64,000 bases of DNA from Vicinamibacterales bacterium (GTDB lineage Bacteria; Acidobacteriota; Vicinamibacteria; Vicinamibacterales; UBA2999), in assembly GCA_035495795.1 (NCBI GenBank), contig DATJFF010000163.1, positions 43,114-107,113 on the forward strand, in the 5' to 3' direction. A model generated the notes under the pieces. That model saw only the letters and a list, made by a program, of their open reading frames with translations. It was not told where the DNA came from and made no database searches. Within the stretch, counting starts at the first letter, position 1; every line of letters starts with the position of its first letter. Both the position numbers and the translations under genes were made by a program. Positions 3,210-43,956 of the stretch are shown piece after piece.

Positions 3210-3295
3210 GATCTGGTGATCTCGTGAGCTGGGGATCTGGAGATCTGATCTGGTGATCTGAGGATCTTTCGATCTATCTGGTGATCTTGTGATCT
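3210..3295 (+). repeat. tandem array of about 11 octamer units (GATCTGGT-like) carrying 10 GATC sites
   Basis: GATCT starts at 3210, 3218, 3234, 3242, 3247, 3255, 3263, 3271, 3283 and 3291, mostly 8 nt apart. The array lies between the groEL stop (3200-3202) and its terminator. Confidence 0.9.
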
Positions 3296-3296
3296 G

Positions 3297-3335
3297 GGCC
3301 CGGCGGCCTTTTGGCTGCCGGGCCTTTCTTTTTTT
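3297..3335 (+). terminator. intrinsic terminator of groESL
   Basis: GGCCCGGCGGCC-TTTT-GGCTGCCGGGCC stem-loop followed by TTTCTTTTTTT. Confidence 0.8.
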
Positions 3336-3483: not shown

Positions 3484-4134
3484 ATGCGACGTTTCGTGGT
3501 AACCGGAATCCTTGTCGGCCTGCTCGGTTGGATTGCCGCCGTCCCGGCTCAGGCTCAGGACAAGTCGGCACGCGGATCGGTGACCGCGGTTGGCATGGAC
3601 ACCGTCACTGTGAAGGCCGGCGCCCAGGAGCTCAAGCTCACGGTCGATGGGAAGACCGAAATCATCGCCGAAGGCGCGGGGACAGCCAACCGCGCGGCGG
3701 TTGCCAAAGGCGCCGCTGGCGCCAAGCTCGCCGATCTCGTCAAGGTCGGCGAGAATGTCGAAGTCAACTACCGCGAGGCCGGCGGCATGATGCACGCCAC
3801 CACCATCCGCAAGGTGCGTTCGACCGGTGCCGGCGGCGGCGGCGTGTCAGAACCCAAGGCGGCGACCCCGATGTCCAGCGGCACGGTGACCGCCGTGTCC
3901 GGAACCTCGCTGACCATCTCCGGCGCGAGCGGCGGTGGCGGCAAGTTCACGCAGACCTTTACGATCGACAGCGCCACCCACGTCGTCGCCGAAGGTGCCA
4001 GCACCGCCAGCGCCAAGGGCAAGGTCACCATCACCGATCTCGTGAAGAAGGACGACTCCGTCCAGGTGACCTACGTCGAGAGCGGCGGCACGCTCCGGGC
4101 CACCGAGGTCCGCAAGCGCAACACGAAGCCGTAA
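3484..4134 (+). CDS. secreted protein with two tandem ~85-aa repeats (DUF5666-like by pattern)
   Basis: ATG at 3484 is preceded by GGAAGGAG. Signal peptide MRRFVVTGILVGLLGWIAAVPAQA|Q. The internal duplication GSVTAVGMDTVTV...VEVNYRE / GTVTAVSGTSLTI...VQVTYVE is visible. Confidence 0.6.
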   Translation: MRRFVVTGILVGLLGWIAAVPAQAQDKSARGSVTAVGMDTVTVKAGAQELKLTVDGKTEIIAEGAGTANRAAVAKGAAGAKLADLVKVGENVEVNYREAGGMMHATTIRKVRSTGAGGGGVSEPKAATPMSSGTVTAVSGTSLTISGASGGGGKFTQTFTIDSATHVVAEGASTASAKGKVTITDLVKKDDSVQVTYVESGGTLRATEVRKRNTKP

Positions 4135-4160: not shown

Positions 4161-4197
4161 GGCCCGGGCACGACATCGTGTTCGGGCCTTGCCTTTT
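4161..4197 (+). terminator. probable intrinsic terminator after the 3484-4134 gene
   Basis: GGCCCGGGCACG-ACAT-CGTGTTCGGGCC stem (with two G-U pairs) followed by TTGCCTTTT. Located at a convergent gene junction. Confidence 0.45.
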
Positions 4198-5282
4198 CAG
4201 GGCACGCTCGGCCGCTCGGTGGATTTCAGGAACTCCGCCAGGTACGGCCCGAACACCTGTGGCAGTGAATGCGTGCCGTGCCCGCGCGTCTCGTCGGAGA
4301 CCGGAATCAGCACGAATCTGCTGTGCGCCACCCTGCCAATCAGGTCCCGCATCATCGGCAGCTCCGGCGGGTTCACGAAGTCGTCGGCGGAGTTGATGGC
4401 CAGCAGCGGCGCCGTGATCTCGCCGAGGTGCGCCGATGGGTCGTAGTCCTCGGACGCCTGAAAATGGTAGATCGTGTCGTTTGCATCGGTCGTCTTCAGC
4501 CGCGTCTTGATCTGATCCTCCAGCCACGCGTCGGCGGCCGCGTGCGTCGGGAACTGTTTCTGCCATTGCAGCGGGACGCTCGTCGCCAGGAGCAGGAACC
4601 CGAGCGCGCTGGCCATGCCGCGCGGCGGCTCGGAGTACTCTCCGCCCTTCCAGGTCGGATCCGTGACGATTGCGTCGACCAGGAGCTTGCGCCAGACGCG
4701 ATTGCGCCCTGCCACTTCGACTGGATTGCTGGCCAGCGGCACCAGCCCGCGCGCGAACGACGGGTACATGTACCCCCACACCCACGCGTGCATCGCGCCC
4801 ATGGACGTTCCCATGATCAGCCGCAGCTCGGAGAGCCCGAGCGCCTCGGTCACCAGCTGGTGCTGTAGCCGCACCATGTCGGTGTAGCGGTATTTCGGGA
4901 AGCGCATGTGCAAGCCATCGCTCGGCTTGCTCGACTGCCCGTGCCCGATGTTGTCGGGAAGGATGATGAAGTAGCGCTCGGCATCGAGCAGCTGCCCCTT
5001 CCCGAACAGACGGCCGGCGTAGTTCTCGGACACGAACCCCCGCCCGCTGCCACCGGTGCCGTGAAGGATCATCACCGCATTGCGGACGACTCCGTCGGCG
5101 TCCTTCCGCGGCTGACCGATCGTGCGGTAGTGAATTCTGACTTCCGCGGCGCGGTCGCCGCTCTCGAACCGCACGTCGCGCGCGATGAAGTCGCGCTCCA
5201 CGGGCGGCGGGTAGCTGGCCTGCGCGACGGCCAGGGACGGAAGGGCGAGGAGAAACGCGAGCGCTTGGATGGTGCGGGTCAC
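4197..5282 (-). CDS. secreted alpha/beta-fold hydrolase/acyltransferase (MetX-like)
   Basis: Signal peptide ...LPSLAVA|QASY. GTSMG nucleophile elbow (LIMGTSMGAMHAW). Overall pattern resembles homoserine O-acetyltransferase-type alpha/beta enzymes. Lies 19 nt downstream of the carrier-protein gene. Confidence 0.75.
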   Translation of the reverse strand: MTRTIQALAFLLALPSLAVAQASYPPPVERDFIARDVRFESGDRAAEVRIHYRTIGQPRKDADGVVRNAVMILHGTGGSGRGFVSENYAGRLFGKGQLLDAERYFIILPDNIGHGQSSKPSDGLHMRFPKYRYTDMVRLQHQLVTEALGLSELRLIMGTSMGAMHAWVWGYMYPSFARGLVPLASNPVEVAGRNRVWRKLLVDAIVTDPTWKGGEYSEPPRGMASALGFLLLATSVPLQWQKQFPTHAAADAWLEDQIKTRLKTTDANDTIYHFQASEDYDPSAHLGEITAPLLAINSADDFVNPPELPMMRDLIGRVAHSRFVLIPVSDETRGHGTHSLPQVFGPYLAEFLKSTERPSVP

Positions 5283-5301: not shown

Positions 5302-5538
5302 TCAGGACTTGGGCCGCAACTCCTCCGAAAATTCCAGGATTGCTCGCATGCTGGCGAAGCGGCTGGGGGTGAACGCGTCGGTCGGGACGCGGGCGCCGGT
5401 CGTCTCTTCCACGAACAGCACCAGGTCGAACAGCGCCAGCGAATCGACGACCTCGCGGAGGTCGTCGTCGAGCGTCAGGGTGTCGCGGTATTGACGGAAG
5501 CGGCTCTTCAGGTAGCCGCGAAGCTGTGCTTCATTCAC
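5302..5538 (-). CDS. acyl/aminoacyl carrier protein (phosphopantetheine-binding, DltC-like)
   Basis: 78 aa from the GTG at 5538. Contains a DSL serine motif (VVDSLALFDLVLFVEE). Overlaps the stop of the upstream ligase gene by 8 nt. Confidence 0.7.
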   Translation of the reverse strand: MNEAQLRGYLKSRFRQYRDTLTLDDDLREVVDSLALFDLVLFVEETTGARVPTDAFTPSRFASMRAILEFSEELRPKS

Positions 5539-7009
5539 GGGGAGCTCCTCTGTCGAGCAGGTGACGCTGGATCTTGCCGGTGGCCGTCCGGGGGATACGC
5601 TCGGAGCGCACGAACCGTCGTGGAACCTTGTGGTGCGAGAGGCGCTCGGCGCAGAACGCGCCGAGCTCGACCGGGTCGAAGGCGGCACCAGGCACGACAT
5701 ACACCCAGACGACTTCACCCAGAAACGGGTGCGGCACCCCAACCGCTGCCGCGTCGGCAACGTCCGGGTGCGTCGAGACGACCGCCTCGATTTCGGCCAG
5801 GCTGATGCGCTCACCCGCCACCTTGACGATGTCCTTGGCCCGGCCGGTGATGAAGAGGCACGCGGTGCCGTCCAGGTACCCGACGTCGCCGGTATTGAGC
5901 CACCCCTTCTCGAGCACGCCTCCGGTCGCATCGGGATCTTCCCAGTAGCCCTGCATGACGTTCGGACCGTGCAGCCAGATCGCGCCTTCCGCACCGGCCG
6001 GCACGGGGTGGCCTTCACCGTCCCTGATCTCGATCGTCATCCCGGGAAGCACGCGGCCGACCGACTTCGGCTTCGCCGTCAGTTCATCATGAGGCAGGAA
6101 CGTGGCCCGCGTCGACGACTCGGTGAGGCCGTACATCGAGAAGATCGCGACGCGCGGCCACCCCTTCGCCAGCGCCTCCGTCGTCCAAACCGGCAGCGCA
6201 CCTCCTGAGGTCGTGATCGCGCGCAGGGCGCTCGGCACGGTCTCCGCCAGGTTCGATGAACGGGCCAGCATGTTCAAGTGGAACGGCACGACGCTGGCGA
6301 TGGTGCAGCCCTCTTTCGCGAGTCTGCCGAGCAACAGAGGCGCGGACCCGCTCTCCTCGATGAGCACGACTGACGCGCCGGCGGCGATCGCGGAAAGCAG
6401 GTTGCTCTTTCCGTAGGTGTGGGCCAGCGGCAAGATCAGGCCGTAGCGGTCATCCTCAGTCATCTCGAGGTACCGGCAGACTGCCTCGACGACGAACAGG
6501 ATGTTGCCGTGACTGAGTACCACCCCCTTCGGCAAGCCGGTGGTGCCCGACGTGAACACGACCGACGCGGGGGCATCGGTGCTTGGCGGAGCGACTGGCG
6601 CTCCCGCATCCGTGCCGCACTGTTCCAGGAAGGTGTCGAGCGAGAGCGTCGGGGCACCGACGACGATGCCTTCGAGATCGTCGCGGTCGGTCAGAACGAG
6701 CGCCGGCCTGACGCGATCGAGCAGGCGCGCGATGGTCTCCTTCTCCTCGCCGCGTCCGATCTCGACAGTGGTCGCACCCGCGAGCAGCGCGCCGAAGTAG
6801 GCCACGACATAGGCTGCAGAATTACCGGCGACGAACGCGACATAGGGCCGCTCGCAGGAGATAAGCGTGCCGCAGATCCGCGCTCCGGCGGCGGCCCGCG
6901 CGCCCAGTTCCTGGTAGGTCCATCGCTGTTCCCGCCAGACGAGCGCTTCCCGCGCCGGATGGCGCGCGACGGCGTCCGCGAAGAGACCGGCGATCGAGAA
7001 GCTGGTCAC
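5531..7009 (-). CDS. ANL-superfamily adenylating enzyme (AMP-dependent ligase, DltA/acyl-ACP ligase-like)
   Basis: TSGTTGLPKGV (A3), YGLTE (A5), NTGD (A7), GRAKDIVKVAGERI (A8) and PRTATGKIQR (A10) motifs. Confidence 0.9.
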   Translation of the reverse strand: MTSFSIAGLFADAVARHPAREALVWREQRWTYQELGARAAAGARICGTLISCERPYVAFVAGNSAAYVVAYFGALLAGATTVEIGRGEEKETIARLLDRVRPALVLTDRDDLEGIVVGAPTLSLDTFLEQCGTDAGAPVAPPSTDAPASVVFTSGTTGLPKGVVLSHGNILFVVEAVCRYLEMTEDDRYGLILPLAHTYGKSNLLSAIAAGASVVLIEESGSAPLLLGRLAKEGCTIASVVPFHLNMLARSSNLAETVPSALRAITTSGGALPVWTTEALAKGWPRVAIFSMYGLTESSTRATFLPHDELTAKPKSVGRVLPGMTIEIRDGEGHPVPAGAEGAIWLHGPNVMQGYWEDPDATGGVLEKGWLNTGDVGYLDGTACLFITGRAKDIVKVAGERISLAEIEAVVSTHPDVADAAAVGVPHPFLGEVVWVYVVPGAAFDPVELGAFCAERLSHHKVPRRFVRSERIPRTATGKIQRHLLDRGAPRE

Positions 7010-7022
7010 GACGACCGCGCGA

Positions 7023-8372
7023 TTACGTCAGCAATCGCGCGCAGAAACTGGCCATGCTGCTCCACGTATCGCTGGATTCCACCAGCCCGTGAAGCACGGC
7101 GTAGAAGCAGGACGTGAGCACGATTCCCATCACCGACCAGAGGCGGCTGTCTCCGAGGCCCGCGAAGCGCTCGGGAAAGCGGGTCGGCAGGGCCAGGACC
7201 GCGTATATCGCCGCAGCGTTGGCGAACCAGTAGATCAGGCCGGCGACCACGTTGGATACCGAGCTTTCGCCGGTGAGAATATCCGGCGAAATGTGCAGGA
7301 TACCGGAGGTGAGGAGCGCGCCGAACACCGCCAGGAACAGCTGCCGGTGCCGGCGCATGATCGGGAAGAACACGAACGTGATGATCCATTCCCGGGTCAG
7401 GATGTTCCAGCGCTGCCAGTGTTCATTGGGTGTCCGGGCCAGCAGCCAGTAGTTGAAGTTGCTCCGCACGCCGATTCCGAACAGCCGGACGATGCCGATG
7501 AACACGTTGAAGCGGAGCACGATGCCGCAGTAGTACGAGACGTAGTGGACGTACGAGGTCGCGAGCAGTGTGAACCCATGGACCGAGGCCAGCGGAAAGC
7601 GCGCCAGGAACCGGCTGCCGACCGATTGTGCAAATGACGCCGCGAGGGCGATATACAGGGCCCGCATGCCGGCCCAGCGCGTCGCCCGCAGGCGGTCGTC
7701 GCTCGCCGTACGCAGATCGTCGTAGGTGATTGCCGGACAGGTCACGAGACGGCACGAAATGTAGCTTGCGAACTCACGCAGCGACAACCGTCCGCGTGCC
7801 TGGCGGTGCGCCGAATACCAGAGCATCGGCATCAGCACCGGCCAACCGCCCAGGAAGACATCGACGGCGTCACCGGGCAGCAGCCGCGCCATCAGCACCG
7901 TGCACACCAGGCAGAAGCCGGCGACGACGAACGACAGCCGCAAGGGCGAAAGTGGAAGCTGCAGCAGCAGGTAGGTAGTGCCGACCACCGCCGCAATCGG
8001 GAGGGCGGATGGCGCATCGAGGCCGCCGTCGAGAACCGCGAATGGGAGGACCATCAGCGCGAGCAGCTTCAGCCGCACTTCGGTGGTCGAGAAGAACGTC
8101 AGGAGGAATGCAGCCAGCGCGATGGGAACAATCGGCGACAGGTGCGGGAGGCCGGCCAGCACCGGCCTTGGTTCGGGGTGCTGGAGCATGTAACCGCCCA
8201 GATACCGCGCGAGCAGCCAGAAGCGCGGTTCGAGGACGATGATGCCGATGGCGGCGAGCCCGAACCAGAGGAATTCCGAATCCTGGATGCGGGTGGACAG
8301 CGAGGCCGCGGCAGCGAACGCTGCTACGGGCCGGCGCTGGGAGATCGCTTCCGATGACTGCACAGACTGCAC
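7023..8372 (-). CDS. MBOAT-family membrane-bound O-acyltransferase (DltB/AlgI-like)
   Basis: Polytopic 449-aa protein. RSNFNYWLLARTPNEHWQRWNILTREW matches the MBOAT P-NF-N..A.S..EFW.RW(H/N) block. A conserved His follows 37 aa later (SGILHIS). GTG start. Confidence 0.75.
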   Translation of the reverse strand: MQSVQSSEAISQRRPVAAFAAAASLSTRIQDSEFLWFGLAAIGIIVLEPRFWLLARYLGGYMLQHPEPRPVLAGLPHLSPIVPIALAAFLLTFFSTTEVRLKLLALMVLPFAVLDGGLDAPSALPIAAVVGTTYLLLQLPLSPLRLSFVVAGFCLVCTVLMARLLPGDAVDVFLGGWPVLMPMLWYSAHRQARGRLSLREFASYISCRLVTCPAITYDDLRTASDDRLRATRWAGMRALYIALAASFAQSVGSRFLARFPLASVHGFTLLATSYVHYVSYYCGIVLRFNVFIGIVRLFGIGVRSNFNYWLLARTPNEHWQRWNILTREWIITFVFFPIMRRHRQLFLAVFGALLTSGILHISPDILTGESSVSNVVAGLIYWFANAAAIYAVLALPTRFPERFAGLGDSRLWSVMGIVLTSCFYAVLHGLVESSDTWSSMASFCARLLT

Positions 8373-8581
8373 GCTGCGAGGAATCCTTCCCCGGGTCAGG
8401 CAAAGCGGGTTCCGCCGCGGTCGGGAACCGTTCGTCTGGCTTAAGTCACTGAGAAAATTGGGGTTATCTCAGGGTTTGCCGGATCGTGAAACGTCGGGTT
8501 GGAGCCCGGAAGTCAACCTCCGCGGCGATTGTTGTCGGCACATTTGTGTGATTCGGGCCTGAGGCGAGCACCTGACTACCC

Positions 8582-9355
8582 TCAAAAAGTCACACGAAAC
8601 AGCTTCGGCCAGAGCTTGCCGGTAATCAGGAACGTCCGATCGGCCGGGTCGTAGGCGATCCCGTTCAGGACGTCGGCGCCGAGCCGCTCGGCGGGCTGCA
8701 GCAAACCTGCCGCGTCGATTCTCGCGGTCACGCGGCCGGTCTGCATATCGATGCGGACGATCGTGTCCGTCGTCCAGACATTCGCGTAGACATCGGTGCC
8801 GACACACTCGAGCTCGTTCAGCCGCGGCAGCGGGCGGCCGTTCTCGGTCACCTGAACGGTCCGAGTGACCGCGAACGTGCCCGGATCGCGCACCGTCAAG
8901 CTGTCGCCGCCGTTGCTCATGACGAGCGACCGGCCATCGTGGCAGAGGCCCCAACCCTCACCTTGGTACGCCATCTCTCCGACGCGGTTGAACGTGTTCT
9001 TGTCGTAGACGAAGACGCGGCCGTGTTGCCAGGTGAGCTGGAAGAGGCGGTTCCCGACGTCGGCGAGACCCTCCGCGAAGTAGGGAGCGTCGACTGGTAC
9101 TTGCTGCTTCACTGCCCCGCTCACCAGATCGACCTTGCGAAGCGAGGAGCGGCCGACCAGGCCCGTGCTCTCGTAGAGGATGCCGTCGCGCCAGATGAGG
9201 CCCTGCGTGAAGGCCTGGACATCGTGCGGGTAGGTCCGGAGGACCCTCACCTTGAGGATGGCAGGCGTCACCGCATTCGTTTGCGCGAGCGAGCCGCCGG
9301 AGGGCGCGCCGGCGAGCACCGCGGCGACAACGAGAAGCGAACCAGCTGCGCGCAT
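8582..9355 (-). CDS. glutaminyl-peptide cyclotransferase, plant-type (beta-propeller) QC
   Basis: YPHDVQAFTQGLIWRDGILYESTGLVGRSSLRKVDL, GEGWGLCHDG and NELECVGTDVYANVW are signature blocks of type-I glutamine cyclotransferase. Signal peptide ...GGSLA|QTNA. Confidence 0.85.
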   Translation of the reverse strand: MRAAGSLLVVAAVLAGAPSGGSLAQTNAVTPAILKVRVLRTYPHDVQAFTQGLIWRDGILYESTGLVGRSSLRKVDLVSGAVKQQVPVDAPYFAEGLADVGNRLFQLTWQHGRVFVYDKNTFNRVGEMAYQGEGWGLCHDGRSLVMSNGGDSLTVRDPGTFAVTRTVQVTENGRPLPRLNELECVGTDVYANVWTTDTIVRIDMQTGRVTARIDAAGLLQPAERLGADVLNGIAYDPADRTFLITGKLWPKLFRVTF

Positions 9356-9382
9356 CGCGCGAATCTCACCGGGTTCCGCGGC

Positions 9383-10267
9383 TCAGCGGAGCGTGAACGT
9401 CAGCTCGATGGTGATGATCACGGGAACCGGCTGGCCCTGGCGCATGCCGGGAGAGAAGCGCCAATTGCGAGCCGCCTTGATCGCTTCCTGGTCGAGCCCG
9501 AAGATCGGATCCAGCGACTTGGTGACCTTCACCTCACCCACCGAGCCGTCTGGCATCACGATGCACTCGAGCCACACCGAGCCCTGGACCTTGGCGCGCA
9601 TCGCATCCGCGGTGTATTGCGGCTTCACCTCGCGCAGGACGCGAGGCAAGGTGATCCCGGCGCCAGGCCGGAAAGCGCCGCCGCCGGTGCCGCCGCCGTA
9701 GCCGGGCCCGAGGCCGCTTCCGGTGCCAGGGCCGCTTCCGCTGCCGGTACCGGTTCCCGCTCCCCCTCCCGTCCCGGAGCCCTGCGATTCGCTTACGGGC
9801 GTCTCGCTGAGGATGGCACCGGGCAGCTGCTGTTCTGCCGCAGCCATGTTGACGACGGGCAGGTTCATGGCCGGCAGAGGCTCGGGCTCCTCCACTTTGG
9901 GGGGCGTCGGCGCCGGCTTCTTCTCGACCGGAACCGTGATCTTCTCCTTGCCAGGCACCTCAGCAGGACGGGGGGGCTCGGGGCGCTTGTTGCCGCCGCC
10001 ACCGCCACCACCACCCGGCCCTTCAATCGGCAGGAAGACAAGTCGATCGACCTTCAGTTCGGGCTGAGGCTCGAAGACCCTTGGCTCCGGCCGATACTGA
10101 ATCACCAGGATGGCGATCAGCACCATGATCGCGTGCGCGCCGACCGAGGCACCCGCGCCCACCCGCGACTGACGCTCCTCGAGCGAGAAGTGAATGTCGA
10201 TCGGGCGGTCCGGCCGGACGTGGAGCGGCCCTTCCGCTGCGGGCGTCGCGATGGTCGGGTCAGCCAT
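9383..10267 (-). CDS. tonB: energy transducer TonB
   Basis: N-terminal TM anchor, Pro/Gly-rich spacer (PEPPRPAEVPGKEK...) and a C-terminal TonB-C domain (PQYTADAMRAKVQGSVWLECIVMPDGSV...AARNWRFSPG). Confidence 0.8.
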   Translation of the reverse strand: MADPTIATPAAEGPLHVRPDRPIDIHFSLEERQSRVGAGASVGAHAIMVLIAILVIQYRPEPRVFEPQPELKVDRLVFLPIEGPGGGGGGGGNKRPEPPRPAEVPGKEKITVPVEKKPAPTPPKVEEPEPLPAMNLPVVNMAAAEQQLPGAILSETPVSESQGSGTGGGAGTGTGSGSGPGTGSGLGPGYGGGTGGGAFRPGAGITLPRVLREVKPQYTADAMRAKVQGSVWLECIVMPDGSVGEVKVTKSLDPIFGLDQEAIKAARNWRFSPGMRQGQPVPVIITIELTFTLR

Positions 10268-10371
10268 CAGAACAGTGGTCCCACGGCCATTGTGACCGAG
10301 CGATCTGGCACAAACAAGTGCAAAGCCAGCGCCATGCCGTTTTGACGCCTCAGGTGTACATCCGGCTTCGG

Positions 10372-10380
10372 TGCTACAAT
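10372..10380 (+). promoter_or_regulatory. extended -10 promoter element TGcTACAAT upstream of tatA
   Basis: TGCTACAAT lies 47 nt upstream of the tatA ATG. It is part of a 15-mer also found upstream of the ECF sigma gene. Confidence 0.35.
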
Positions 10381-10426
10381 TTGCGTTGAGGTGGCCGCCC
10401 GCCGTCCTCGAGGAGACTCGCTCACC

Positions 10427-10597
10427 ATGGAGGTCCTAGCCTTGTTCGGACCAATCGGCCTGCCAGAGATGTTGATCATCCTGGCGATCGTCATTCTCAT
10501 CTTCGGCGCCAATCGCCTTCCCGAGCTCGGTCGCGGAATCGGAGCCGGGATCAAGAACTTCAAGTCCTCCATCAAGGACGGTGAGAAGTCCGAGTAA
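10427..10597 (+). CDS. tatA: twin-arginine translocase subunit TatA/E
   Basis: MEVLALFGPIGLPEMLIILAIVILIFGANRLPELGRGIGAGIKNFK is canonical TatA. ATG at 10427 is preceded by GAGGAG. Confidence 0.85.
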   Translation: MEVLALFGPIGLPEMLIILAIVILIFGANRLPELGRGIGAGIKNFKSSIKDGEKSE

Positions 10598-10600
10598 CGC

Positions 10601-12499
10601 CTAGAGCAGCACCCGGGAGTCACCGACTCTCCGCGTGACTCGCTCGCGATCGAGAAACTCCAGCAACGGGATCGCATACTTGCGGGTGATGCCGTAGCGA
10701 TCCTTGAACTGGGCGACGTCAATTCGCACCACCCCGCCCGCGCCCTCGGCCTTGAGGGTCGCCATCTCTCCCTTCAACCGATCCAGCGCCTCCCTGTGCA
10801 CGACCAGGGTATCGAGCCGGACCAGCGTCTTCTGTCGTACCAGGTAGGCCGTCGCGGCCTCGGTCACGTCCGGGGATACGCCGGCGCGCTCCGCGATTGC
10901 CGCGCGGTCGGGCGGCGTCAGGCCGGCCTCGCGATACGCCTCGGCAACCTTTGCCACCGTCTCCTCTCCGCCGGGGAGCGATGCCTTGTGCGAAGGCAGC
11001 GCCAGCCGCTCGCGATCCACGATGGCCTTGGCCACCACGAGCCGGCGCATGGCCGCTTCGAAAATCGCCGGTTCGACTCCCGTGAACACGCGAGCGCGCG
11101 CTTCTTCCCTGGGCAGCCCTTCGCTGATCGGCTGCTGTTCGTGGAATGTCCCGACCAGGCGAAGCACGGCATCGCCGGCCGCCGCGATGGCCGGCGCGGC
11201 CACCAGCAAGTCTCCGACTTGAATCACGGTTCCCAGCCGCTGGAGAGCGGCAACTCTCTCGCCGACTTGCGCCGGGCGAATGCCGGCCCGGGCGACGGCG
11301 TCGCTGACCGGCACCCCACGGAGGCCGCGGTCCCGGATCATCGCCCCGAACGCTGCCGCCGAATCGGCCCCTTGCAGCTCGCGCAGCCGGCCCAGGCCCG
11401 CGGCACTGCGGATGCGCGGCACGGTCGGCGCTGGATCGAGGACGGTCGCCGCGCCAATCGTGAACGGCGGCGAATAGCTGCGGAGGATGACACGATCGCC
11501 ACGCGTCAGCACGGCCGGCTCCTCCAGCCGCAGGCGCGCGAGGGCGCGGCCGCCGCTTTCGATCGCCGGCGCATCGGCTCCGGCAATCGAGATCCGCGCG
11601 AGCACCTCCGCTGTCCCGTGATGGACCCGAACCCGCGCGCCATGGCGGAGCGGTCGTGTCGAGGGCAGCAACTCGATCTCCACGTCTGCCCGCCGCGTGA
11701 CTGCGAGCGTTTGCGGTGCGGCCAGCGTCTGGCCGCGACGGACATCGGCCGCGTCGATGCCCCCAAGGTTGATGGCGGTTCGCTGGCCGGCCGCGACCCT
11801 GTCGCGCGACTGTCCGTGCACCTGGATACCCCTTACCTTCGCCGCCTGGCTTCCCGGCAACAGCGCGAATTCCTCGCCGACGCCAATCTGCCCGCCGACG
11901 AGTGTCCCGGTTACGACGGTGCCGAACCCCTTCATCGTGAAGACGCGGTCGATGGGCAGCCGCACGGCGCCGGCTACCGGCCGCTCGTCAACGCGGGCCG
12001 CAGCCGCTTCGAGCACGCCTCGGAGCTGGTCCAACCCCTCGCCGGTCCGCGCCGACACCTGGACGATCGGTTTGTTCTCGAGGAACGAGCCGCGCACCAG
12101 GTCCGCGACCTCGAGCGCGACCAGCGCCCGCGTGTCATCGTCGGCCGCGTCCTGCTTGGTGATCACCACGCAGCCGTCGGACACGCGGAGCAGGCGGCAA
12201 ATGTCGAAATGCTCGCGGGTCTGCGGCATCACGCTCTCGTCGGCGGCGACGATCAGCATCACGAAGTCCACGCCGCCGACGCCGGCGAGCATCGTGCGGA
12301 CGAACTTTTCATGTCCCGGGACGTCGACGAACGCGACCTGCGCCTCGCCGATTGTCGCGTGCGCGAAGCCAAGCTCGATGGTGATGCCGCGCGCCTTCTC
12401 TTCCTTGAGTCGATCGGGATCGATGCCGGTGAGTGCGTGAACCAGCGTGCTCTTGCCGTGATCGATGTGCCCGGCGGTGCCGACGACGAGGCGAGTCAT
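10601..12499 (-). CDS. selB: selenocysteine-specific translation elongation factor SelB
   Basis: [46 protein letters not shown]-domain. 632 aa with C-terminal winged-helix repeats. Confidence 0.9.
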
Positions 12500-14592
12500 C
12501 GCTTCTTGCGGAACGCCCGCTCCTTCTTCCCAGGACGCTGCGCGCCCCGTCGCGGGCGCTTCACGGTCGTGCGCGGGCGCGCCTCGCGCCGTGGCCGGGC
12601 GGCGCGCACCTTGCGCCCAAGCGGCGCCTCACGCGGCGCGTCGAGCACCTGCTCCACCGCCAGGTCGATCATCCGGCGTTCGAGGTCCACCCGCGCGATG
12701 CGCACCCGCACGTGCTCGCCGAGCCGGTAGATTCGGCCGCCCCGCTCGCCGACCAGCGTGTGCGCCCCTTCGGTGAACCGGTAGTAGTCGTCGGCAAGCG
12801 TCGAGATATGCGCCAGGCCCTCCACGTAATGATCGACGAGCTCGACGAACAGCCCGAACGGCGCGACGCCGGTGATGTAGCCGTCGAAGCTCTCGCCGAC
12901 CTTGTCGGCCATGAACCGCACCTTCTTCCACTGCAGCAGCTCGCGTTCCGCCTCGTCGGCGCGCCGCTCGCGCTCGGAGGTGTGCCGGCCGACCTCCGGC
13001 AGGGACAATTCCAGCGCTTCGCGCCGCTCCTCCGTCACCCGCGTGTGCTGCAACTCGCGGAGCAGCCGATGAACGACCAGATCGGGATAGCGACGGATGG
13101 GGGACGTGAAATGGGTGTAGCTGGCCGCGGCGAGTCCGAAGTGACCCATGTTCACCGAGTCGTAGCGCGCCTTCTGCATCGTCCTCAGCATGAGGAAGGC
13201 GATTGGCCGCTCGACCGGCGTGCCGCGGATCTTCTCGACCAGCGCCTGGAAATGCCGCGGCGTCGGGCCGCCGTCGGGCGCGTTCAGCGAGTAGCCGAGC
13301 GTGCGGATGAAGGCCTCGAACTCCTCGACCTTCAGCGGGTCGGGCTGCTCGTGGATGCGGTAGAGCGACGGCATGCGTGCGTCTTCGAGGTGGCTCGCCA
13401 CCGTCTCGTTAGCGAGCAGCATGAACTCCTCGATCAGCCGGTGGGCAACGTTCCGCTCCGAGGCAATGATGTCTGCGACCAACCCCTCGGTATCCAGGAT
13501 CACCTGAGGTTCCGGAAGGTCGAAGTCGACCGATCCACGCCGGCGACGGGATTGGTTGAGGACCGCGAACAGATCTGCCATCAGCTCGAAGGCCGGGACG
13601 AGCGGCGCGTAGCGCTCGCGAAGCTCCTCGTCGCCCGTCAGGATGGCGTTGACGGAGGTGTAGGTCATGCGCTCGGTGCTGCGAATCACGCCATCGTGGA
13701 TCTCGTGCCTGACGACGTCACCATGCGGCGTCACTTCCATCAGACAGGACTGGACGAGCCGGTCTACGTGCGGCTTGAGGGAACAGAGTCCCGTGGCCAG
13801 CGCCTCGGGAAACATGTGGACGGCGCGCTCGGGAAAGTACACCGACGTGCCGCGCTCGTATGCCTCGCGATCGAGCGCGCTTCCCTCTTTCACGTAGTGC
13901 GACACGTCGGCAATGTGGACGCCCAGCCAGTAATGACCGTTCGGCAGGCGCTCGATCGAGATCGCGTCGTCGAAATCGCGCGCGTGCTCGCCGTCGATTG
14001 TGACCACGATGCGATCGCGAAAATCGGTTCGGCCCTTGATGTCGGCTGGACGCACGGCGGGGCCGATGCGCTCGGCTTCGGCGATCGCTTCGGCGCCGTG
14101 TCCGTCCGGGATGTCGTGCTTGTGCACGATGATCGCGGTGTCTACGCCGGGATCCTCGAGACGGCCGAGCACTTCACTGACCGCGCCCTGCGCCGGCTGT
14201 CCCGCCGCGGCGTGGCGCGTGACCTCGACGACGACCATCTGCCCCGGCTCGGCGTTCGCGATATCGCGGCGCCCGATCAGGACATCGTCCATGCTGCGGC
14301 GGTCGAACGGGACGACATAGCCCTGGCCGACGCGGTCGCGCTCGAAGCGCCCGACGATCTGGCGTGGCGGAGGCGCGCTCGGCCGCGGCGGCCGGCGGCC
14401 CTGCTCGCGCGGCAGCGCGTACAACTGGCCTCGCACGAGCACGAGCGATCCATCGGATAGAAGTTGTCGAAGCGCCCGTTTGGCGCCGGCGCGCTCAAGG
14501 CGCGGAACGCGGAGGAGGCGGAGGATTTCGTCGGCCCGCGCGGGCCGGGAGAGCCGATCCCGTAATCGGGTCAGCAGTTCAGACTTGTTCAC
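12496..14592 (-). CDS. rnr: ribonuclease R
   Basis: RNB catalytic core (DFDDAISIERLPNGHYWLGVHIADVSHYV, FTSPIRRYPDLVVHR), an S1 domain and a basic C-terminal tail. Start set to the GTG at 14592, giving a GTGA overlap with the upstream stop. Confidence 0.9.
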   Translation of the reverse strand: MNKSELLTRLRDRLSRPARADEILRLLRVPRLERAGAKRALRQLLSDGSLVLVRGQLYALPREQGRRPPRPSAPPPRQIVGRFERDRVGQGYVVPFDRRSMDDVLIGRRDIANAEPGQMVVVEVTRHAAAGQPAQGAVSEVLGRLEDPGVDTAIIVHKHDIPDGHGAEAIAEAERIGPAVRPADIKGRTDFRDRIVVTIDGEHARDFDDAISIERLPNGHYWLGVHIADVSHYVKEGSALDREAYERGTSVYFPERAVHMFPEALATGLCSLKPHVDRLVQSCLMEVTPHGDVVRHEIHDGVIRSTERMTYTSVNAILTGDEELRERYAPLVPAFELMADLFAVLNQSRRRRGSVDFDLPEPQVILDTEGLVADIIASERNVAHRLIEEFMLLANETVASHLEDARMPSLYRIHEQPDPLKVEEFEAFIRTLGYSLNAPDGGPTPRHFQALVEKIRGTPVERPIAFLMLRTMQKARYDSVNMGHFGLAAASYTHFTSPIRRYPDLVVHRLLRELQHTRVTEERREALELSLPEVGRHTSERERRADEAERELLQWKKVRFMADKVGESFDGYITGVAPFGLFVELVDHYVEGLAHISTLADDYYRFTEGAHTLVGERGGRIYRLGEHVRVRIARVDLERRMIDLAVEQVLDAPREAPLGRKVRAARPRREARPRTTVKRPRRGAQRPGKKERAFRKKR

Positions 14593-19277: not shown

Positions 19278-19293
19278 TACATGGCCTGCTTTC

Positions 19294-19335
19294 GCCTTGT
19301 GCCTTCTGCCTTGTGCCTTTTGCCTTCTGCCTTTT
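19294..19335 (-). repeat. heptamer tandem array, 6 units GCCTT(C/G/T)T (AGAAGGC in gene sense)
   Basis: GCCTTGT GCCTTCT GCCTTGT GCCTTTT GCCTTCT GCCTTTT. Starts 2 nt after the pckA stop (19338-19340). Confidence 0.9.
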
Positions 19336-23469: not shown

Positions 23470-23931
23470 ATGCGCGGTAAGTGGTTCATCTGTCTCGTTT
23501 TGTCTCTCTCGGTCACGGCTTGTACCGGGACCGCGTCAGCGCAGAGCTTCAAGTGGTGGCAGGACGACAAGTTCAAGGAAGAACTGGCCCTGACCGCCGC
23601 GCAGGTAACGCGTCTCGAGGAGATCTTCCAGACGCTCCAGCCAACGCTGAAAGGCCAGAAAGAAACCCTCGACAAGCTCGAGGCGCGTCTGTCGAAGGTG
23701 ATCAACGATCCCCGCTCCGACGAGGCGACGATGCTCCAGGTTTCCGAGCGCGTGGAAGCAGCGCGCGGCGAGTTGAGCAAGTCGCGGACGCTCCTGCTCT
23801 TTCGGATGCGCCGCATCCTGACGAGCGATCAAGATGTCAAAATGAAGGCGCTGCACGAACAGTGGGTTCGTGACCGCCGCAATCGTCCCAGCACTAGTCA
23901 GAAGCCCCCCGCATCGGGTCCGCAGGAGTGA
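23470..23931 (+). CDS. periplasmic Spy/CpxP-like (LTXXQ-motif) protein
   Basis: Signal peptide or lipobox (LSVTAC...ASA|QSF). LTAAQVTRLEEIF LTXXQ-type helix, overall helical and charged. Confidence 0.5.
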   Translation: MRGKWFICLVLSLSVTACTGTASAQSFKWWQDDKFKEELALTAAQVTRLEEIFQTLQPTLKGQKETLDKLEARLSKVINDPRSDEATMLQVSERVEAARGELSKSRTLLLFRMRRILTSDQDVKMKALHEQWVRDRRNRPSTSQKPPASGPQE

Positions 23932-23956: not shown

Positions 23957-25687
23957 ATGAGGAACAGTGTGTGTGTCATCGCCGCCGCCGCGATTTTTGC
24001 GGCGGCCCCCGTTTACGCCCAGTCCAAGCAGGCTGCCGACGATGCCGCCCGGACGGACGCGGTCGTCAAGCAGGCGCTCGCCGGTTACCAGGACGCGCTG
24101 AAAACGCTCGATACCCAGTCCGAGCCGGATCCGCAGTCGCCGATCGGTCGCATGGCGCCCGGCGGCACGCGGCCGCTGAGCCTGGAAGAGAGCGTCGCCC
24201 TCGCGCTCGAACAGAATCTGGACATCCAGGTGTCGCGCCTCGACCCGCAGTCGGTGGATTTGCAGGTCGCGGGATTCCGGAACACCTATCGCCCCTCGCT
24301 GACCTCGACATTGGGACAGCGCGGCGCGACGGTGCCGGCGACGACCACCCTTGCCGGCGGCACCACCGGCGTAAACACCGACACCACGACGTATAACTTC
24401 GGCGTCGCCCAGCCCCTCACCTGGGGCGGCGGTTCGTTCGCCGTCGCGTGGAACAACGCCCGCGCCAACTCCACCGACATCCGCGTCAACTTCAACCCCA
24501 GCTTCACGTCGTTCCTGACCGCCAACTACACGCAGCCGCTCCTCCGCGGGTTCAAGATCGACAACACTCGCCAGCAGCTGCAGGTGTCGATGATCAACCG
24601 CGACATCTCCGAGGAGTCGGTGAAGGCAACTGTTGCGCAGACGGTCGCCAATGTAAGGAACGCGTACTGGGACCTGGTGTTCGCGCGCAACTCGGTGGAC
24701 GTCGCGCGTCGAGCGCTGTCGCTCGCCGAGCGGCTCGTCGCCGACAACGAGGCGCGGGTCGAGGTCGGCACGCTGGCTCCGCTCGATATCGTGCAGGCCC
24801 AGGCCGAGGCCGCGACGCGCCGCCAGACGCTGGCCGCTGCTGAAGCCGCGGCGTCCACCGCCGACCTCGCGCTCAAGCGCTATCTCGTGACGTCGACCGA
24901 GGACCCGCTCTGGCGCCAGGAGATCGTTCCCGTCGACGTGCCGTCGCTCGAGCCGCCGCCGACCGACGTCGAGGCCGCGGTCCGTCGCGCCGTCGCGGAG
25001 CGCACCGACGTCATCACCTCGCGCAAGACGCTCGAGACCAACGACGTCAATATGCGCTACTTCAAGAACCAGTCACTGCCAGCCGTGGACTTCAACGCGA
25101 CCTATGGCGCCCAGGGCATTGGCGGCGTCCGCGCCATCCGCACGGGCAGCGGTGCCGACGCGACGGTCACCGGCACGATCCCCGGCGGGTATTCCGACGC
25201 GCTCTCCGCGCTCACCAATCGTGACTTTCCGAACTGGAACGCGGCGGTGACGATGACCTATCCGCTGTTCGGCAACCAGGCGGAAGCGCAGTACGCGCGG
25301 GCCCGCGTTCAGAGGCAGCAGACCCAGACCCGGCTTCGCGCGCTCGAGGTTTCGATTGCCGCCGAAGTGGCCAACGCCGCGTTCACCGTGCAGGCGAACC
25401 TGCGCCGCGTCGAGGCGGCCAGCGCCGCGCGCGAGCTCGCGCAGAAGCGGCTCGACGCCGAGCAAAGCCGGTTCGAAGTCGGCCTCACGACCAACTACTT
25501 CGTGGTCCAGGCTCAGCGCGATCTGCGTGACGCGGAAAACACCGAGCTCCGCGCGCTCGCCGACTACCGCAAATCGCTCGTGAACTACGAGCGGGCACAG
25601 GTGGCTCCGGCGAGCGGCGGCACCAACGGCGCGGCCAACGCGACGGCCACGGCGGTTGCGATCAACGCCGTCGGCGGCACGCAGTAA
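23957..25687 (+). CDS. TolC-family outer membrane efflux protein
   Basis: Signal peptide ...APVYA|QSKQ. Two OEP repeats (LSLEESVALALEQNLDIQ..., VRNAYWDLVFARNSV...). Confidence 0.85.
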   Translation: MRNSVCVIAAAAIFAAAPVYAQSKQAADDAARTDAVVKQALAGYQDALKTLDTQSEPDPQSPIGRMAPGGTRPLSLEESVALALEQNLDIQVSRLDPQSVDLQVAGFRNTYRPSLTSTLGQRGATVPATTTLAGGTTGVNTDTTTYNFGVAQPLTWGGGSFAVAWNNARANSTDIRVNFNPSFTSFLTANYTQPLLRGFKIDNTRQQLQVSMINRDISEESVKATVAQTVANVRNAYWDLVFARNSVDVARRALSLAERLVADNEARVEVGTLAPLDIVQAQAEAATRRQTLAAAEAAASTADLALKRYLVTSTEDPLWRQEIVPVDVPSLEPPPTDVEAAVRRAVAERTDVITSRKTLETNDVNMRYFKNQSLPAVDFNATYGAQGIGGVRAIRTGSGADATVTGTIPGGYSDALSALTNRDFPNWNAAVTMTYPLFGNQAEAQYARARVQRQQTQTRLRALEVSIAAEVANAAFTVQANLRRVEAASAARELAQKRLDAEQSRFEVGLTTNYFVVQAQRDLRDAENTELRALADYRKSLVNYERAQVAPASGGTNGAANATATAVAINAVGGTQ

Positions 25688-31540: not shown

Positions 31541-31616
31541 GGAGGTGCGACAGGTGCCGCTGCGGGAGGTGCGACGGGTGCGGCAGGTGCCGGTGCGAAG
31601 GTGCGACGGGTGCACA
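31541..31616 (-). repeat. about 9 octamer-like units (GGTGCGAC / AGGTGCC on the plus strand)
   Basis: GGAGGTGCGACAGGTGC at 31541, GGAGGTGCGACGGGTGC at 31565, GAAGGTGCGACGGGTGC at 31597. GGTGC recurs about every 8 nt. Lies between the permease stop (31634-31636) and the dksA-like start (31470). Confidence 0.8.
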
Positions 31617-31633
31617 GGAGCGGAAGGTGTTCT

Positions 31634-40934: not shown

Positions 40935-41497
40935 TCGTGGAACGACAGATGCCGCCGCTCCGAGACGAAGCGGCCGTCCGGCTCCGGCACGAAGATCAGG
41001 CACTCCTCGAGATCCCCGCCGTAGACGTGCAGGGTCAGCGATGGTGTGTCGGGGCGTGCATTTTCGATCACGTGATGGTCGGTCGGCGGAATCAGGCGGC
41101 CGGCTTCGCCGCTGCCAGCCACGACGGTCTGTCGCGGCTGAATGTTGTAGCGGTGATCGGGTTCCTCGGTGACGTCGTATTGCGTAACCGCGATCTGCCC
41201 TTCGACCACGCCTTCCACGCACCACAGGCCGCCATGGTCGTGCACTGGCGTCCCCTGCCCTGGTCCCCAGGTCATCACGATTGCGGTGTACCGGCCCTGC
41301 GGATCGCGGTGCAGGAGCCGCCTCGCGTAACCGTCCGCACGAGTTGCACGGAAGGTGTCCGGAAGCACGACTCCACCACTGGCGAGCTCATGCTCGAGCA
41401 CGCCTTTCACCGCGCGCGTGATGGCCTCCACCGACCCGGCGTTCACCGCCTCGTCGAGCCGGGCCACGAGCGCCGAACAGAGCTGGTCGGTCTGCAT
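40931..41497 (-). CDS. cysteine dioxygenase type I-like cupin
   Basis: TWGPGQGTPVHDHGGLWCVEGVVEGQI and HHVIEN cupin His motifs typical of bacterial CDO homologues. Confidence 0.7.
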   Translation of the reverse strand: MQTDQLCSALVARLDEAVNAGSVEAITRAVKGVLEHELASGGVVLPDTFRATRADGYARRLLHRDPQGRYTAIVMTWGPGQGTPVHDHGGLWCVEGVVEGQIAVTQYDVTEEPDHRYNIQPRQTVVAGSGEAGRLIPPTDHHVIENARPDTPSLTLHVYGGDLEECLIFVPEPDGRFVSERRHLSFHD

Positions 41498-41505
41498 CGC
41501 GTTCT

Positions 41506-41545
41506 GCCTTCGCCTTGTGCCTTCGCCTTGTGCCTTCTGCCTTGT
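41506..41545 (-). repeat. 6/7-mer tandem array GCCTTC / GCCTTGT / GCCTTCT (AGAAGGC in gene sense)
   Basis: GCCTTC GCCTTGT GCCTTC GCCTTGT GCCTTCT GCCTTGT. Lies 14 nt after the S9 peptidase stop (41560-41562) and 8 nt before the CDO-like start (41497). Confidence 0.9.
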
Positions 41546-41559
41546 TGTTGTTCCCCAGC

Positions 41560-43956
41560 CTACTTCTTCAGGTTCGCGTCGAACAACTTGAGGATCCGCT
41601 TGTACTCATCCGCCCAGCTCGTCGCCTCGATGAACCCGTGGTCCTCGACCGGGTAGACGGCCAGTTCCCAGTTCTCTTTCCGCAGCTCGATGAGGCGCTG
41701 CGCGAGGCGAACCGAGTCCTGGAAGTGCACGTTGGTGTCGACCATGCCGTGGCAGATGAGGAGCGCGCCCTTCAACCCATCGGCAAAGAAAATCGGAGAG
41801 CTTTTCCGGTACGTCTCTTCCGAGGACTGCGGCTCGTCGAGGATGTTCGACGTGTAGGAATGGTTGTAGTGCGCCCAGTCGGTGACCGGACGCAGGGCGG
41901 CGCCAGCCGCAAACGTGTCGGGAGAGGTGAACATCGCCATCAGCGTGATGAAGCCGCCGTAGCTGCCGCCGTACACGCCGACGCGGCGGGCGTCCACGTT
42001 CTGCGACGCCGCCAGATACCCGGCGCCATCCACGACGTCGTCGAGATCGTGACCGCCCATCCATCCGTAGATCGCGGTGCGCCAGTCTCGGCCGTAGCCC
42101 GCGCTGGCGCGGTAGTCGGGATCGAGCACCACGTAGCCCTGCGACGCCAGCACGTGGTGAAACATGTACTCGCGGTAGTACGACGACCAGTAGCGGTGCG
42201 CGTTCTGCAGATACCCGGCCCCGTGCACGAACACCACCGCCGGCCGCGACGGATGGCGCCGGGCGCCGACCATCTCGGGCGTGAACAGACGCGCGTATAC
42301 CATCGCGCCGTCACGAGCCTTGTATTGAATGAGCTGCGGCTCCACCCACTTGAAGCCGCGCCACTCGTCGGAGGTACTCGTCGTCACCTGCGTGGGGGTG
42401 GCGCCGGCCCGGTTCGGCATCAGGAACACCTCGGGTGGACGATTCGACGCTGACGAGATCAGTCCGAGCATCTCCCGGTCCGGCGAAACCGAGGCCTGGT
42501 GCGCACCCGCCGCTGTGGTCAGGCGCTCGCGCGATCCCCCATCGACCGACACCCGGTAAATGTGACGCTCGCCGGGGTGCGCCTCGCTCGATTCGAGATA
42601 GAAGTGACCGCCATCCGGCGAGAGCTCGACCCGATCGATCTCGAAGGTACCTTGGGTAATCGCGGTGCCGGACGGTGAGTCGGCGATCACGTCGACGGTG
42701 TAGAGCTGCATCCAGCCGGTGTGCTCGGCGAGGAACCAGACGCGACGGTTGTCGCGCAGCCAGCCGAGACCGCCCGCGATGTTCCCGCTCGGGCCGATCT
42801 CCCGGACCCAGGCGCTGTCGTGGATCGTGTCCAGCACGCGCGTCTTGCCGCTTGCGGGATCGACGCGGACCAGCCACCGATCGGTGTTGTCGTCGGAACG
42901 GATGCTCGCCACCGCCTGGTTGCCATCGCCCGACAACAGCAGCGATGTCCATCGGACTTCACGCGACGGCTTCGGGGCGGGCGGGGGCGTCGCCGGCGCC
43001 TCGTCCGAGGTGTCCCCCATCTTCGGCCGTGGAATCTCTTGGGCGTCCACGATGCCCTCGAGCCCGGCCCACACCGCCTCCCCGTTCCGCAGGTTGAGGA
43101 TCGCGAGACGTCGCCGATCCTGCGCGTCGCCGACTTTGGTGCGAGACTGAATGTCTTCGGTGTACGCCGACTCGCTGACGAAGCGCGGAACGACGGCCGT
43201 ACGGGACTGCGCCCGTTCGGTGACTAGCAGGTAGGCGTAGATCCCGTCTCCGGATACTGCGGCATCGGTGACCGACTGGCGCTCGGCGAGCTCGAAGCGC
43301 GGCAGCGCCCGTTCGGCCTCGCGCGCTTCCCGCCGCTCGCGGCGGGCGCGTTCCTGCTCCACCCAGTCCAGGATGTGCGCCTCTTCGCGACGCAGCGCCC
43401 GCTGACTGTCGGTCATCTTCGAGTCCGGCCGCTTCTGGGCGACGTCGGTGAGCTGGACGAGCCCGCCGCTCCCGTCGAGGGGAACCAGGAACAGGTTGTT
43501 GTCCCGGACGAAGGTCACCGCGGTCTCGTTGCGGGCCCAGCGCGGCGACGACTCCGCGGCGGTGGTTCGCGTGATGTCGATTCGCCGATTCTCGGTGGTG
43601 TCGATGACAACGATGTCGCCGTTGTCGACGCCGAGTTGCCGCCGCCGGGCCGCGTCCCATTGTCCCGTGGGCAGCGGCGCCGAGCGGCGCTCGTTCTCCG
43701 TCAGCCGGCGCGGCGCGCCTCCGGCCCTGTTCACGACCCACGTCGCCGCCACATCGTCTTTCGGCTGCCGCCATTCGAAGTAGAGCCGCTGCGAGTCACC
43801 GGACCAGCGGGTGTTGTCGGGAGGATAGCCGACGAGATCGGGCCCGCGCATGATGCTGTCTACGGTCAGCGGAAACGAACGGGCGGCGGTCTGCGATTGG
43901 ACGAACGTAGTGAGCGCGACGAGGGCCAGGCCTGCCGCGGCAAGGGGCTTGGGCAT
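41560..43956 (-). CDS. S9-family serine peptidase (prolyl oligopeptidase / dipeptidyl peptidase type) with N-terminal beta-propeller
   Basis: GGSYGGFITLMAM nucleophile elbow and a C-terminal HGMVDTNVH block. Start moved to the ATG at 43956 (MPKPLAAAGLALVAL signal peptide), because the longer track ORF translates the repeat array. Confidence 0.9.
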   Translation of the reverse strand: MPKPLAAAGLALVALTTFVQSQTAARSFPLTVDSIMRGPDLVGYPPDNTRWSGDSQRLYFEWRQPKDDVAATWVVNRAGGAPRRLTENERRSAPLPTGQWDAARRRQLGVDNGDIVVIDTTENRRIDITRTTAAESSPRWARNETAVTFVRDNNLFLVPLDGSGGLVQLTDVAQKRPDSKMTDSQRALRREEAHILDWVEQERARRERREAREAERALPRFELAERQSVTDAAVSGDGIYAYLLVTERAQSRTAVVPRFVSESAYTEDIQSRTKVGDAQDRRRLAILNLRNGEAVWAGLEGIVDAQEIPRPKMGDTSDEAPATPPPAPKPSREVRWTSLLLSGDGNQAVASIRSDDNTDRWLVRVDPASGKTRVLDTIHDSAWVREIGPSGNIAGGLGWLRDNRRVWFLAEHTGWMQLYTVDVIADSPSGTAITQGTFEIDRVELSPDGGHFYLESSEAHPGERHIYRVSVDGGSRERLTTAAGAHQASVSPDREMLGLISSASNRPPEVFLMPNRAGATPTQVTTSTSDEWRGFKWVEPQLIQYKARDGAMVYARLFTPEMVGARRHPSRPAVVFVHGAGYLQNAHRYWSSYYREYMFHHVLASQGYVVLDPDYRASAGYGRDWRTAIYGWMGGHDLDDVVDGAGYLAASQNVDARRVGVYGGSYGGFITLMAMFTSPDTFAAGAALRPVTDWAHYNHSYTSNILDEPQSSEETYRKSSPIFFADGLKGALLICHGMVDTNVHFQDSVRLAQRLIELRKENWELAVYPVEDHGFIEATSWADEYKRILKLFDANLKK

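Follow-up and report, generated by a model that had tools for sequence, protein, structure and literature searches.

Is the Q-rule, in which Gln is the dominant first residue (+1) of signal peptidase I (SPI) substrates and an exported glutaminyl cyclase (QC) faces the periplasm, a property of the Bacteroidetes, or can the same combination be found in a high-GC member of the Acidobacteriota? This question is raised by the stretch of 64,000 nucleotides analysed here (hereafter, the window), in which a preliminary description had pointed out a QC gene next to tonB together with a recurrent Gln after the cleavage sites of exported proteins, taking the rule to be known from Bacteroidetes but not described for a lineage like this one. 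In Bacteroidetes, the mean Q-value is 71% (Bochtler et al. 2018, PMC5837995), pyroglutamate has been seen by mass spectrometry and QC stabilises extracytoplasmic proteins (PMC5837995, PMC10653852), and plant-type QCs from this phylum have been used in place of PgQC in P. gingivalis (mBio 2023, PMC10653852). The rule has been stated to hold for Bacteroidetes and not for other phyla (PMC10653852), and the literature casts it as a hallmark of the former and a reason to target their cyclases. The phyla analysed in 2018 were Bacteroidetes, Chlorobi, Spirochaetes, Chlamydiae and Cyanobacteria, with Q-values under 9% in most Chlorobi, under 20% in Chlamydiae and Spirochaetes, and a handful of high-Q outliers with 'no obvious pattern', i.e., Ignavibacterium album (77%), Chloroherpeton (55%) and about 5% of cyanobacteria (40-67%) (PMC5837995). 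These outliers, which resemble the case described here in their high Gln(+1) outside Bacteroidetes proper, show that more than one phylum can have the trait; unlike them, Acidobacteriota, Chloroflexota and Deinococcota lay outside that analysis. Our full-text literature search bore out the preliminary description on this point, since the Q-rule came up only in papers on Bacteroidetes, plus the few Chlorobi/Ignavibacteria and cyanobacterial outliers, and no paper was found in it linking Acidobacteria with the Q-rule or with glutaminyl cyclase.

The cyclase gene and its immediate surroundings comprise the following features (in the leaders given here and below, a slash marks the cleavage site):

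8582 to 9355, minus strand: gene for a glutaminyl cyclase of the plant type (PF05096 match; 257 aa)
9355 to 9284, minus strand: signal peptide of the cyclase (residues 1-24), with Gln25 as the predicted mature N-terminus
9356 to 9382, minus strand: tonB-cyclase spacer of 27 nt, with a Shine-Dalgarno-like stretch (GGTGAG) shortly ahead of the ATG
9383 to 10267, minus strand: gene for a TonB-family protein of 294 aa (PF03544 TonB_C, E 6e-18; TIGR01352), directly upstream of the cyclase

That an exported plant-type QC is encoded at 8582-9355, as had been proposed, was confirmed by its active-site residues, its SPI signal peptide and a Pfam profile search, in which PF05096 (Glu_cyclase_2) matched residues 24-257 with an E-value of 1.8e-97 and a score of 326 bits (curated cut-off 22.3); the match takes in positions 17-249 of a profile 249 positions long, i.e., nearly its full length. 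The protein also aligns over ~220-228 residues with four QCs of solved structure, namely those of Zymomonas mobilis (3nol, E 9e-66), Xanthomonas campestris (3mbr), Myxococcus xanthus (3nok) and papaya (2faw, E 3e-49), with E-values from 9e-66 to 1e-49 for the three bacterial enzymes, and these alignments point to a five-bladed beta-propeller fold. In the papaya enzyme, Q24, E69, N155 and K225 are thought to be catalytic (Bochtler et al. 2018, PMC5837995). The residue alignment to 2faw places Q51, E95, N180 and K247 of the window cyclase at these positions, and all four are invariant across 26 aligned cyclase homologues. The first of them sets the window enzyme, which has Gln there as papaya does, apart from the Xanthomonas enzyme XcQC, which carries a Glu that lowers its activity (PMC5837995). 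By its sequence, the protein belongs to the plant-type QCs and has kept its active site intact, and it would be expected to convert N-terminal Gln into pyroglutamate. The Zymomonas, Xanthomonas and Myxococcus enzymes resemble it in family, shared active site, export and Gram-negative host; we know of no report on these organisms that describes a Gln(+1) bias across the proteome or a physiological set of QC substrates and, more generally, of no established physiological substrates for bacterial plant-type QCs.

The N-terminus of the cyclase (MRAAGSLLVVAAVLAGAPSGGSLA/QTN) begins with charged residues, continues with a hydrophobic core and closes with a site of the small-x-small kind, SLA/Q, so that the cyclase itself has an SPI-type leader with Gln at +1. 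No Cys is found within its first 40 residues and hence no lipobox, which makes it an SPI substrate and not a lipoprotein. Among 109 close homologues of the cyclase, 65 (about 60%) show Ala, Gly or Ser followed by Gln at this place ([AGS]/Q), and 16 a lipobox.

The placement of the cyclase directly downstream of tonB, with a gap of 27 nt, also holds. The upstream product carries the TonB_C domain at residues 215-293, with a visible Pro-/Gly-rich linker before it, and 27 nt lie between its TGA stop codon at 9385-9383 and the cyclase ATG at 9355. A simple scan detected no promoter- or terminator-like sites in 8300-10700, around both genes, a result compatible with (but no proof of) their probable co-transcription. 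When the window proteins were searched by tblastn against 162 fetched loci, the order RNase R, SelB, TatA, TonB, cyclase and alpha/beta hydrolase, with GroEL nearby, was recovered in 15 of them, the TonB-cyclase distance being 4-212 nt in most and about 1.0-1.4 kb in L001, L092 and L093. GroEL is 91-97% identical across these syntenic loci, and those that come from named genomes (L001, L002 and L007) are all titled Acidobacteriota. The tonB linkage is missing in all the non-syntenic QC loci examined. Within the conserved block, a TatA gene (10391-10597, plus strand) and a gene for a SelB-like selenocysteine elongation factor (10601-12499, minus strand) lie immediately upstream of tonB. On the other side, three genes (5302-8372, minus strand) separate the cyclase from the hydrolase: one for an AMP-binding enzyme (5531-7009), one for a membrane acyltransferase resembling MBOAT/DltB proteins (7023-8372) and an ORF of 78 aa containing a DSL motif, which was considered as a carrier protein but not named so, having no Pfam match. 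This stretch looks like an inserted Dlt-like acylation cassette, because the cyclase directly adjoins the hydrolase, without the three intervening genes, in L083, L086, L090 and L093.

How general is Gln at +1 among the exported proteins of the window? To count it, we used a home-made scorer (not SignalP) that requires a positive start and a hydrophobic core and chooses the best site from positions -3 and -1 only, being thus blind to +1. An automatic pipeline made of our own ORF caller and this scorer proved either too permissive or too strict, as loose filters admitted cytoplasmic proteins of E. coli (CarB, ThiQ) and strict ones lost half of the true window leaders; for this reason the window leaders were curated by hand. 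The resulting sample consists of 14 SPI-type leaders in 64 kb and is not a proteome; the leader at 35621 belongs to a lipoprotein. Besides the cyclase, these leaders are:

3484 to 4134, plus strand: DUF5666 exported protein, leader ...AAVPAQA/QDKS
4197 to 5282, minus strand: exported alpha/beta hydrolase, leader ...PSLAVA/QASYPPP (blind scorer, AQA/S)
23470 to 23931, plus strand: LTXXQ/Spy-like periplasmic protein, leader ...TGTASA/QSF
23957 to 25687, plus strand: TolC-like outer-membrane efflux protein, leader ...AAAPVYA/QSK
41560 to 43956, minus strand: exported S9/DPP-IV-type peptidase, leader ...TTFVQS/QTAARS (blind scorer, TAA/R)
47446 to 48243, plus strand: exported protein with collagen-like repeats, leader ending in AAA/Q
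48273 to 48632, minus strand: small exported protein that matches no family, leader ...WPMVLRA/QEL
49697 to 51856, minus strand: TonB-dependent receptor, leader ending in PGA/Q (blind scorer, AMA/T)
58227 to 58631, plus strand: small exported protein that matches no family, leader ...LSASALA/QNA
58693 to 59577, plus strand: exported HbpS-like and cupin protein, ambiguous leader end, AGA/MAQ or AMA/QVM (blind scorer, AGA/M)
46902 to 47366, minus strand: exported protein without Gln at +1, ...ALVTA/GMN
57135 to 58148, plus strand: glyoxalase-family protein with a hydrophobic N-terminus, without a good cleavage site and without Gln at +1
59574 to 61205, plus strand: SMP-30/gluconolactonase-like exported protein without Gln at +1, ...LAAAPA/AVR

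The preliminary description had counted 11 sites with Gln at +1 and about three exported proteins lacking it. The latter are the last three of the list, and all 11 N-termini of the former exist, although that count had been made with Gln in mind. The blind scorer found Gln at +1 in 7 of the 14 leaders (3484, 9355, 23470, 23957, 47446, 48632 and 58227), and at 5282, 43956, 51856 and 58693 it preferred, with a slightly better score, a site two to four residues away from the one first proposed. Homologues restore 5282, 43956 and 51856, giving 10 of 14, and 58693 stays ambiguous. With 14 leaders and a home-made predictor, the Q-value of the window thus amounts to 50% by the blind count and to 71-79% when homologues are taken into account. 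No other residue comes close to Gln in frequency at +1 of the window leaders, the proteins carrying it come from unrelated protein families, and in the same leader sets Gln is rare at +2 and -2. As a baseline, the same pipeline applied to 250 kb of E. coli K-12 gave Gln at +1 in 3 of 23 leaders (13%), with Ala the commonest residue. Under a baseline of 13%, the binomial probability of 7 or more such leaders among 14 is 9e-4, and that of 10 or more is 8e-7; with a baseline of 20%, the two values become 0.012 and 5e-5. Strict automatic filters left 3 of 8 to 4 of 11 window leaders with Gln, values that alone are not significant against E. coli. Taken together, the window has a strong Gln(+1) bias, and chance is an unlikely source of it. 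High GC was rejected as its cause, given that Gln makes up 3.7% and Ala 12% of the residues of all window proteins, so that GC should favour Ala at +1.

Homologous leaders fix several of these sites independently of the scorer. In the DUF5666 protein, Gln is kept in 3/3 orthologues while positions -3 to -1 change (AQA in the window, VYA/QDT in L083, IHA/QSS in L090). In the hydrolase, Gln stands three residues ahead of a [YF]P.P motif in 7/7 orthologues, again with varying -3 to -1, and this conserved spacing fixes the site as AVA/Q. Such a constant +1 Gln amid changing neighbours would look like the pattern expected of selection acting on +1. The S9 peptidase, whose start is the same in the database gene call, has close homologues that read LSA/QPH, LAA/QPR and LVS/QPR at the aligned place, and among 113 homologues a canonical site before Gln is present in 54. 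In a further 38 of the 113, +1 is Asp or Glu and Gln follows at +2 (e.g., LGA/EQS and ITA/DQQ), so that Gln, where it does not occupy +1, is still no more than one residue away. For the TonB-dependent receptor, at least 89 of 120 homologues contain [AGS]Q in the N-terminal stretch (a regular-expression count that includes some truncated sequences and false matches), by eye usually just ahead of the first beta-strand, which supports PGA/Q as the probable cleavage site. The collagen-like protein, for its part, has an orthologue in L171 with the leader PVSA/QPQ. Apart from its leader, this protein (47446-48243) matches the collagen triple-helix repeat PF01391 (E 1e-7), and its L171 counterpart (12183-12971) adjoins a TonB-dependent receptor. 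The LTXXQ/Spy-like protein, for which a lipobox had been mentioned as an alternative, does have one at 23470-23541: SVTA/C lies at residue 18 beside the good SPI site ASA/Q at residue 25, and either pathway fits.

Does the pattern extend beyond this one genome? The window homologues of the S9 peptidase and of the receptor bear the names Vicinamibacterales or Acidobacteria, which together with the synteny places the window in the Acidobacteriota, probably in the Vicinamibacterales. Searches for exact copies of the cyclase and of the protein at 59574 retrieved no record, and one with GroEL contributed no more than 8 kb of genes for cytoplasmic proteins. The neighbourhoods of such homologues with 74-80% identity (about 150 kb) were inspected for their own leaders. 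With the anchor genes left out, about 9-10 of 13-14 leaders end in A/Q (~70%). In L171 this applies to 6 of 6 (S9-like peptidase, receptor, collagen-like protein, DUF7452 protein, OMP beta-barrel and one unknown), and the leaders of L165, L167, L172 and L173 mostly have Gln at +1. Gln(+1) in L172 is not limited to Sec substrates, because its alanine racemase homologue (12790-14013) has a twin-arginine leader, MPRMKRRSFL...SASA/QKP.

For a broader view, 80 genome and 80 metagenome loci were chosen for the presence of a related cyclase alone and run through the automatic pipeline, which is noisy and makes the group percentages only rough. Gln at +1 was counted as follows:

Syntenic relatives: 8 of 15
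Chloroflexota: 13 of 25 (by eye, nearly all clean leaders)
Trueperaceae: 3 of 3
Other Acidobacteriota: 9 of 26
Myxococcota: 4 of 21
Metagenome loci with 53-65% cyclase identity: 3 of 21
Actinomycetota: 0 of 3

In more distant QC-bearing loci, Gln(+1) thus ranges from 0 to about 50%. No Gln bias was seen in the Actinomycetota loci (0/3 to 0/9), in Blastocatellia L048, in Terracidiphilus L074 or in many metagenome loci, and the metagenome (3/21), Myxococcota (4/21) and Actinomycetota (0/3) counts led us to reject a Q-rule common to all genomes with a QC. Because the bias is so uneven across QC-bearing loci, the cyclase gene alone is no predictor of the rule; the loci that show the bias are those with the closest QCs (74-82% identity, syntenic). 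Outside Acidobacteriota, nearly all clean leaders end in A/Q in Chloroflexota L021, L022, L026, L038, L039, L049, L067, L072 and L080 and in Trueperaceae L041 and L043 (Deinococcota), in both groups in small counts and from QC-bearing loci only; examples from the two groups are PAQA/QNG, PALA/QDM, LVTA/QNN and AVFA/QTA.

Set beside the Bacteroidetes, the window shares with them, as far as its 14 leaders go, the dominance of Gln at +1 of SPI substrates (50-79%, against a mean of 71% there), a QC that is exported to face the periplasm, and a pattern that covers periplasmic, outer-membrane and secreted classes; with the Flavobacteriia it further shares the QC type (PF05096). The rule as defined for Bacteroidetes calls for a species Q-value above about 48%, to which the window figures (7/14 blind, 10/14 informed) and the ~70% of the relatives can be compared as the outcome of 64 kb plus about 150 kb and a home-made predictor. 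The differences are these: the host of the window belongs to the high-GC Acidobacteriota, its cyclase is a soluble SPI substrate and not a lipoprotein, and this cyclase sits in a conserved tonB-QC pair.

From all this, it is probable that the host, an acidobacterium and probably a member of the Vicinamibacterales, runs the same N-terminal capping system as the Bacteroidetes. Sec (and probably also Tat) substrates would be cut by SPI, most often leaving Gln at the new N-terminus, the soluble periplasmic plant-type cyclase (8582-9355) would turn this Gln into pyroglutamate, and the N-terminus blocked in this way would shield envelope and secreted proteins from aminopeptidases. Both the pyroglutamate on the mature proteins, with its protective role, and the link of the Gln bias to this particular cyclase are drawn here by analogy with the Bacteroidetes and should be read as predictions. 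An exported S9 peptidase in the window, and exported S9 and M13 peptidases in the relatives, where M13 lies beside the S9 homologue, fit a protease-rich envelope in which protection from exopeptidases would be of use. The interpretation offered in the preliminary description is in this sense supported by everything that a sequence can test. Some points count against such a capping system, namely the lack of a membrane anchor in the cyclase, when 87% of the Bacteroidetes plant-type QCs are membrane-anchored lipoproteins of the inner membrane, the small sample (14 window leaders and about 14 in relatives, from a home-made scorer), the 3/8 to 4/11 left by strict filters, the presence of Gln at +1 in no more than about 60% of the cyclase's own homologues, the low activity of XcQC, a close relative of solved structure, and the many QC-bearing loci without Gln bias. 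Given these loci, the substrates of the cyclase could be few.

The latter thought can be taken further, to a Gln(+1) bias that is real but independent of the cyclase, arising from a preference of SPI or from some advantage in translocation or stability, with the cyclase acting on a few dedicated substrates. N-terminal Gln also cyclises spontaneously. That QC presence does not predict the bias speaks for such a decoupling (0/3 to 0/9 in Actinomycetota, none in L048 and L074, 3/21 in the metagenome loci with 53-65% identity), as does the fact that about 60% of bacterial plant-type QCs fall outside Bacteroidetes. We nonetheless consider it unlikely, since QC and bias are functionally tied in Bacteroidetes, the loci showing the bias are marked by the closest, syntenic QCs (74-82% identity), and the cyclase is exported to the very compartment where Gln N-termini arise. 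Less likely still is that the cyclase has a TonB-linked envelope function, such as maturing one receptor, a plug or an exported peptide, and that the wide Gln pattern is incidental to it. Adjacency to tonB across 15 loci (4-212 nt in most) would suit this idea, and most members of the TonB-dependent receptor family keep Gln at +1, but the bias also spans the hydrolase, the TolC-like protein, the S9 peptidase, the collagen-like protein, an OMP beta-barrel and small unknown proteins, and the other QC loci examined all lack the linkage to tonB.

Could the pattern simply result from picking, among several plausible A-x-A sites, the one that precedes Gln? Four of the 11 sites first proposed were not the top choice of the blind scorer, and strict filters leave 3/8 to 4/11. 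However, the scorer that ignores +1 still returns 7/14, with Gln on top, where E. coli has 13%; few leaders of these sets have Gln at +2 or -2; the orthologue alignments fix the position of Gln independently; and L171 gives 6/6. An artefact of site choice is thus highly improbable, the least credible of these readings, and the capping system shared with the Bacteroidetes is the one retained here.

What would be new in this case is a known Q-rule system in another phylum, with a cyclase that is soluble and has a conserved place next to tonB. Its occurrence in Acidobacteriota, which are abundant in soil, would make N-terminal pyroglutamate capping a more general bacterial strategy, with the trait being either ancient or acquired repeatedly together with the cyclase, and signal-peptide predictors and N-terminomics searches in these phyla should expect pyroglutamate (-17 Da). 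Going one step further, we would tentatively suggest, on slightly less than even expectations, that the Q-rule is a polyphyletic envelope trait, which arises wherever a plant-type QC has taken on the general capping of N-termini. With the same reserve, it may take in Vicinamibacterales-like bacteria, Anaerolineae (Chloroflexota) and Trueperaceae, and leave out Actinomycetota, some Acidobacteriota and Myxococcota. If this polyphyletic reading were true, lineages would have gained the rule repeatedly, in datable events that each rewrote +1 across a whole secretome. The cyclase-bearing lineages without the bias offer a natural comparison for what selects for the rule.

At the gathering threshold, Rfam gave no match anywhere in the window. 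Its intergenic regions hold several short-period tandem repeats. One of them, AAGGCAG repeated 9 times at 44003-44067, lies just upstream of the start of the S9 peptidase, and its reverse complement, CTGCCTT, is repeated 7 times at 19286-19333. Further intergenic tandem arrays, with units of 7 to 33 nt, are located at 3210-3297, 31543-31622, 41497-41545 and 46851-46898.
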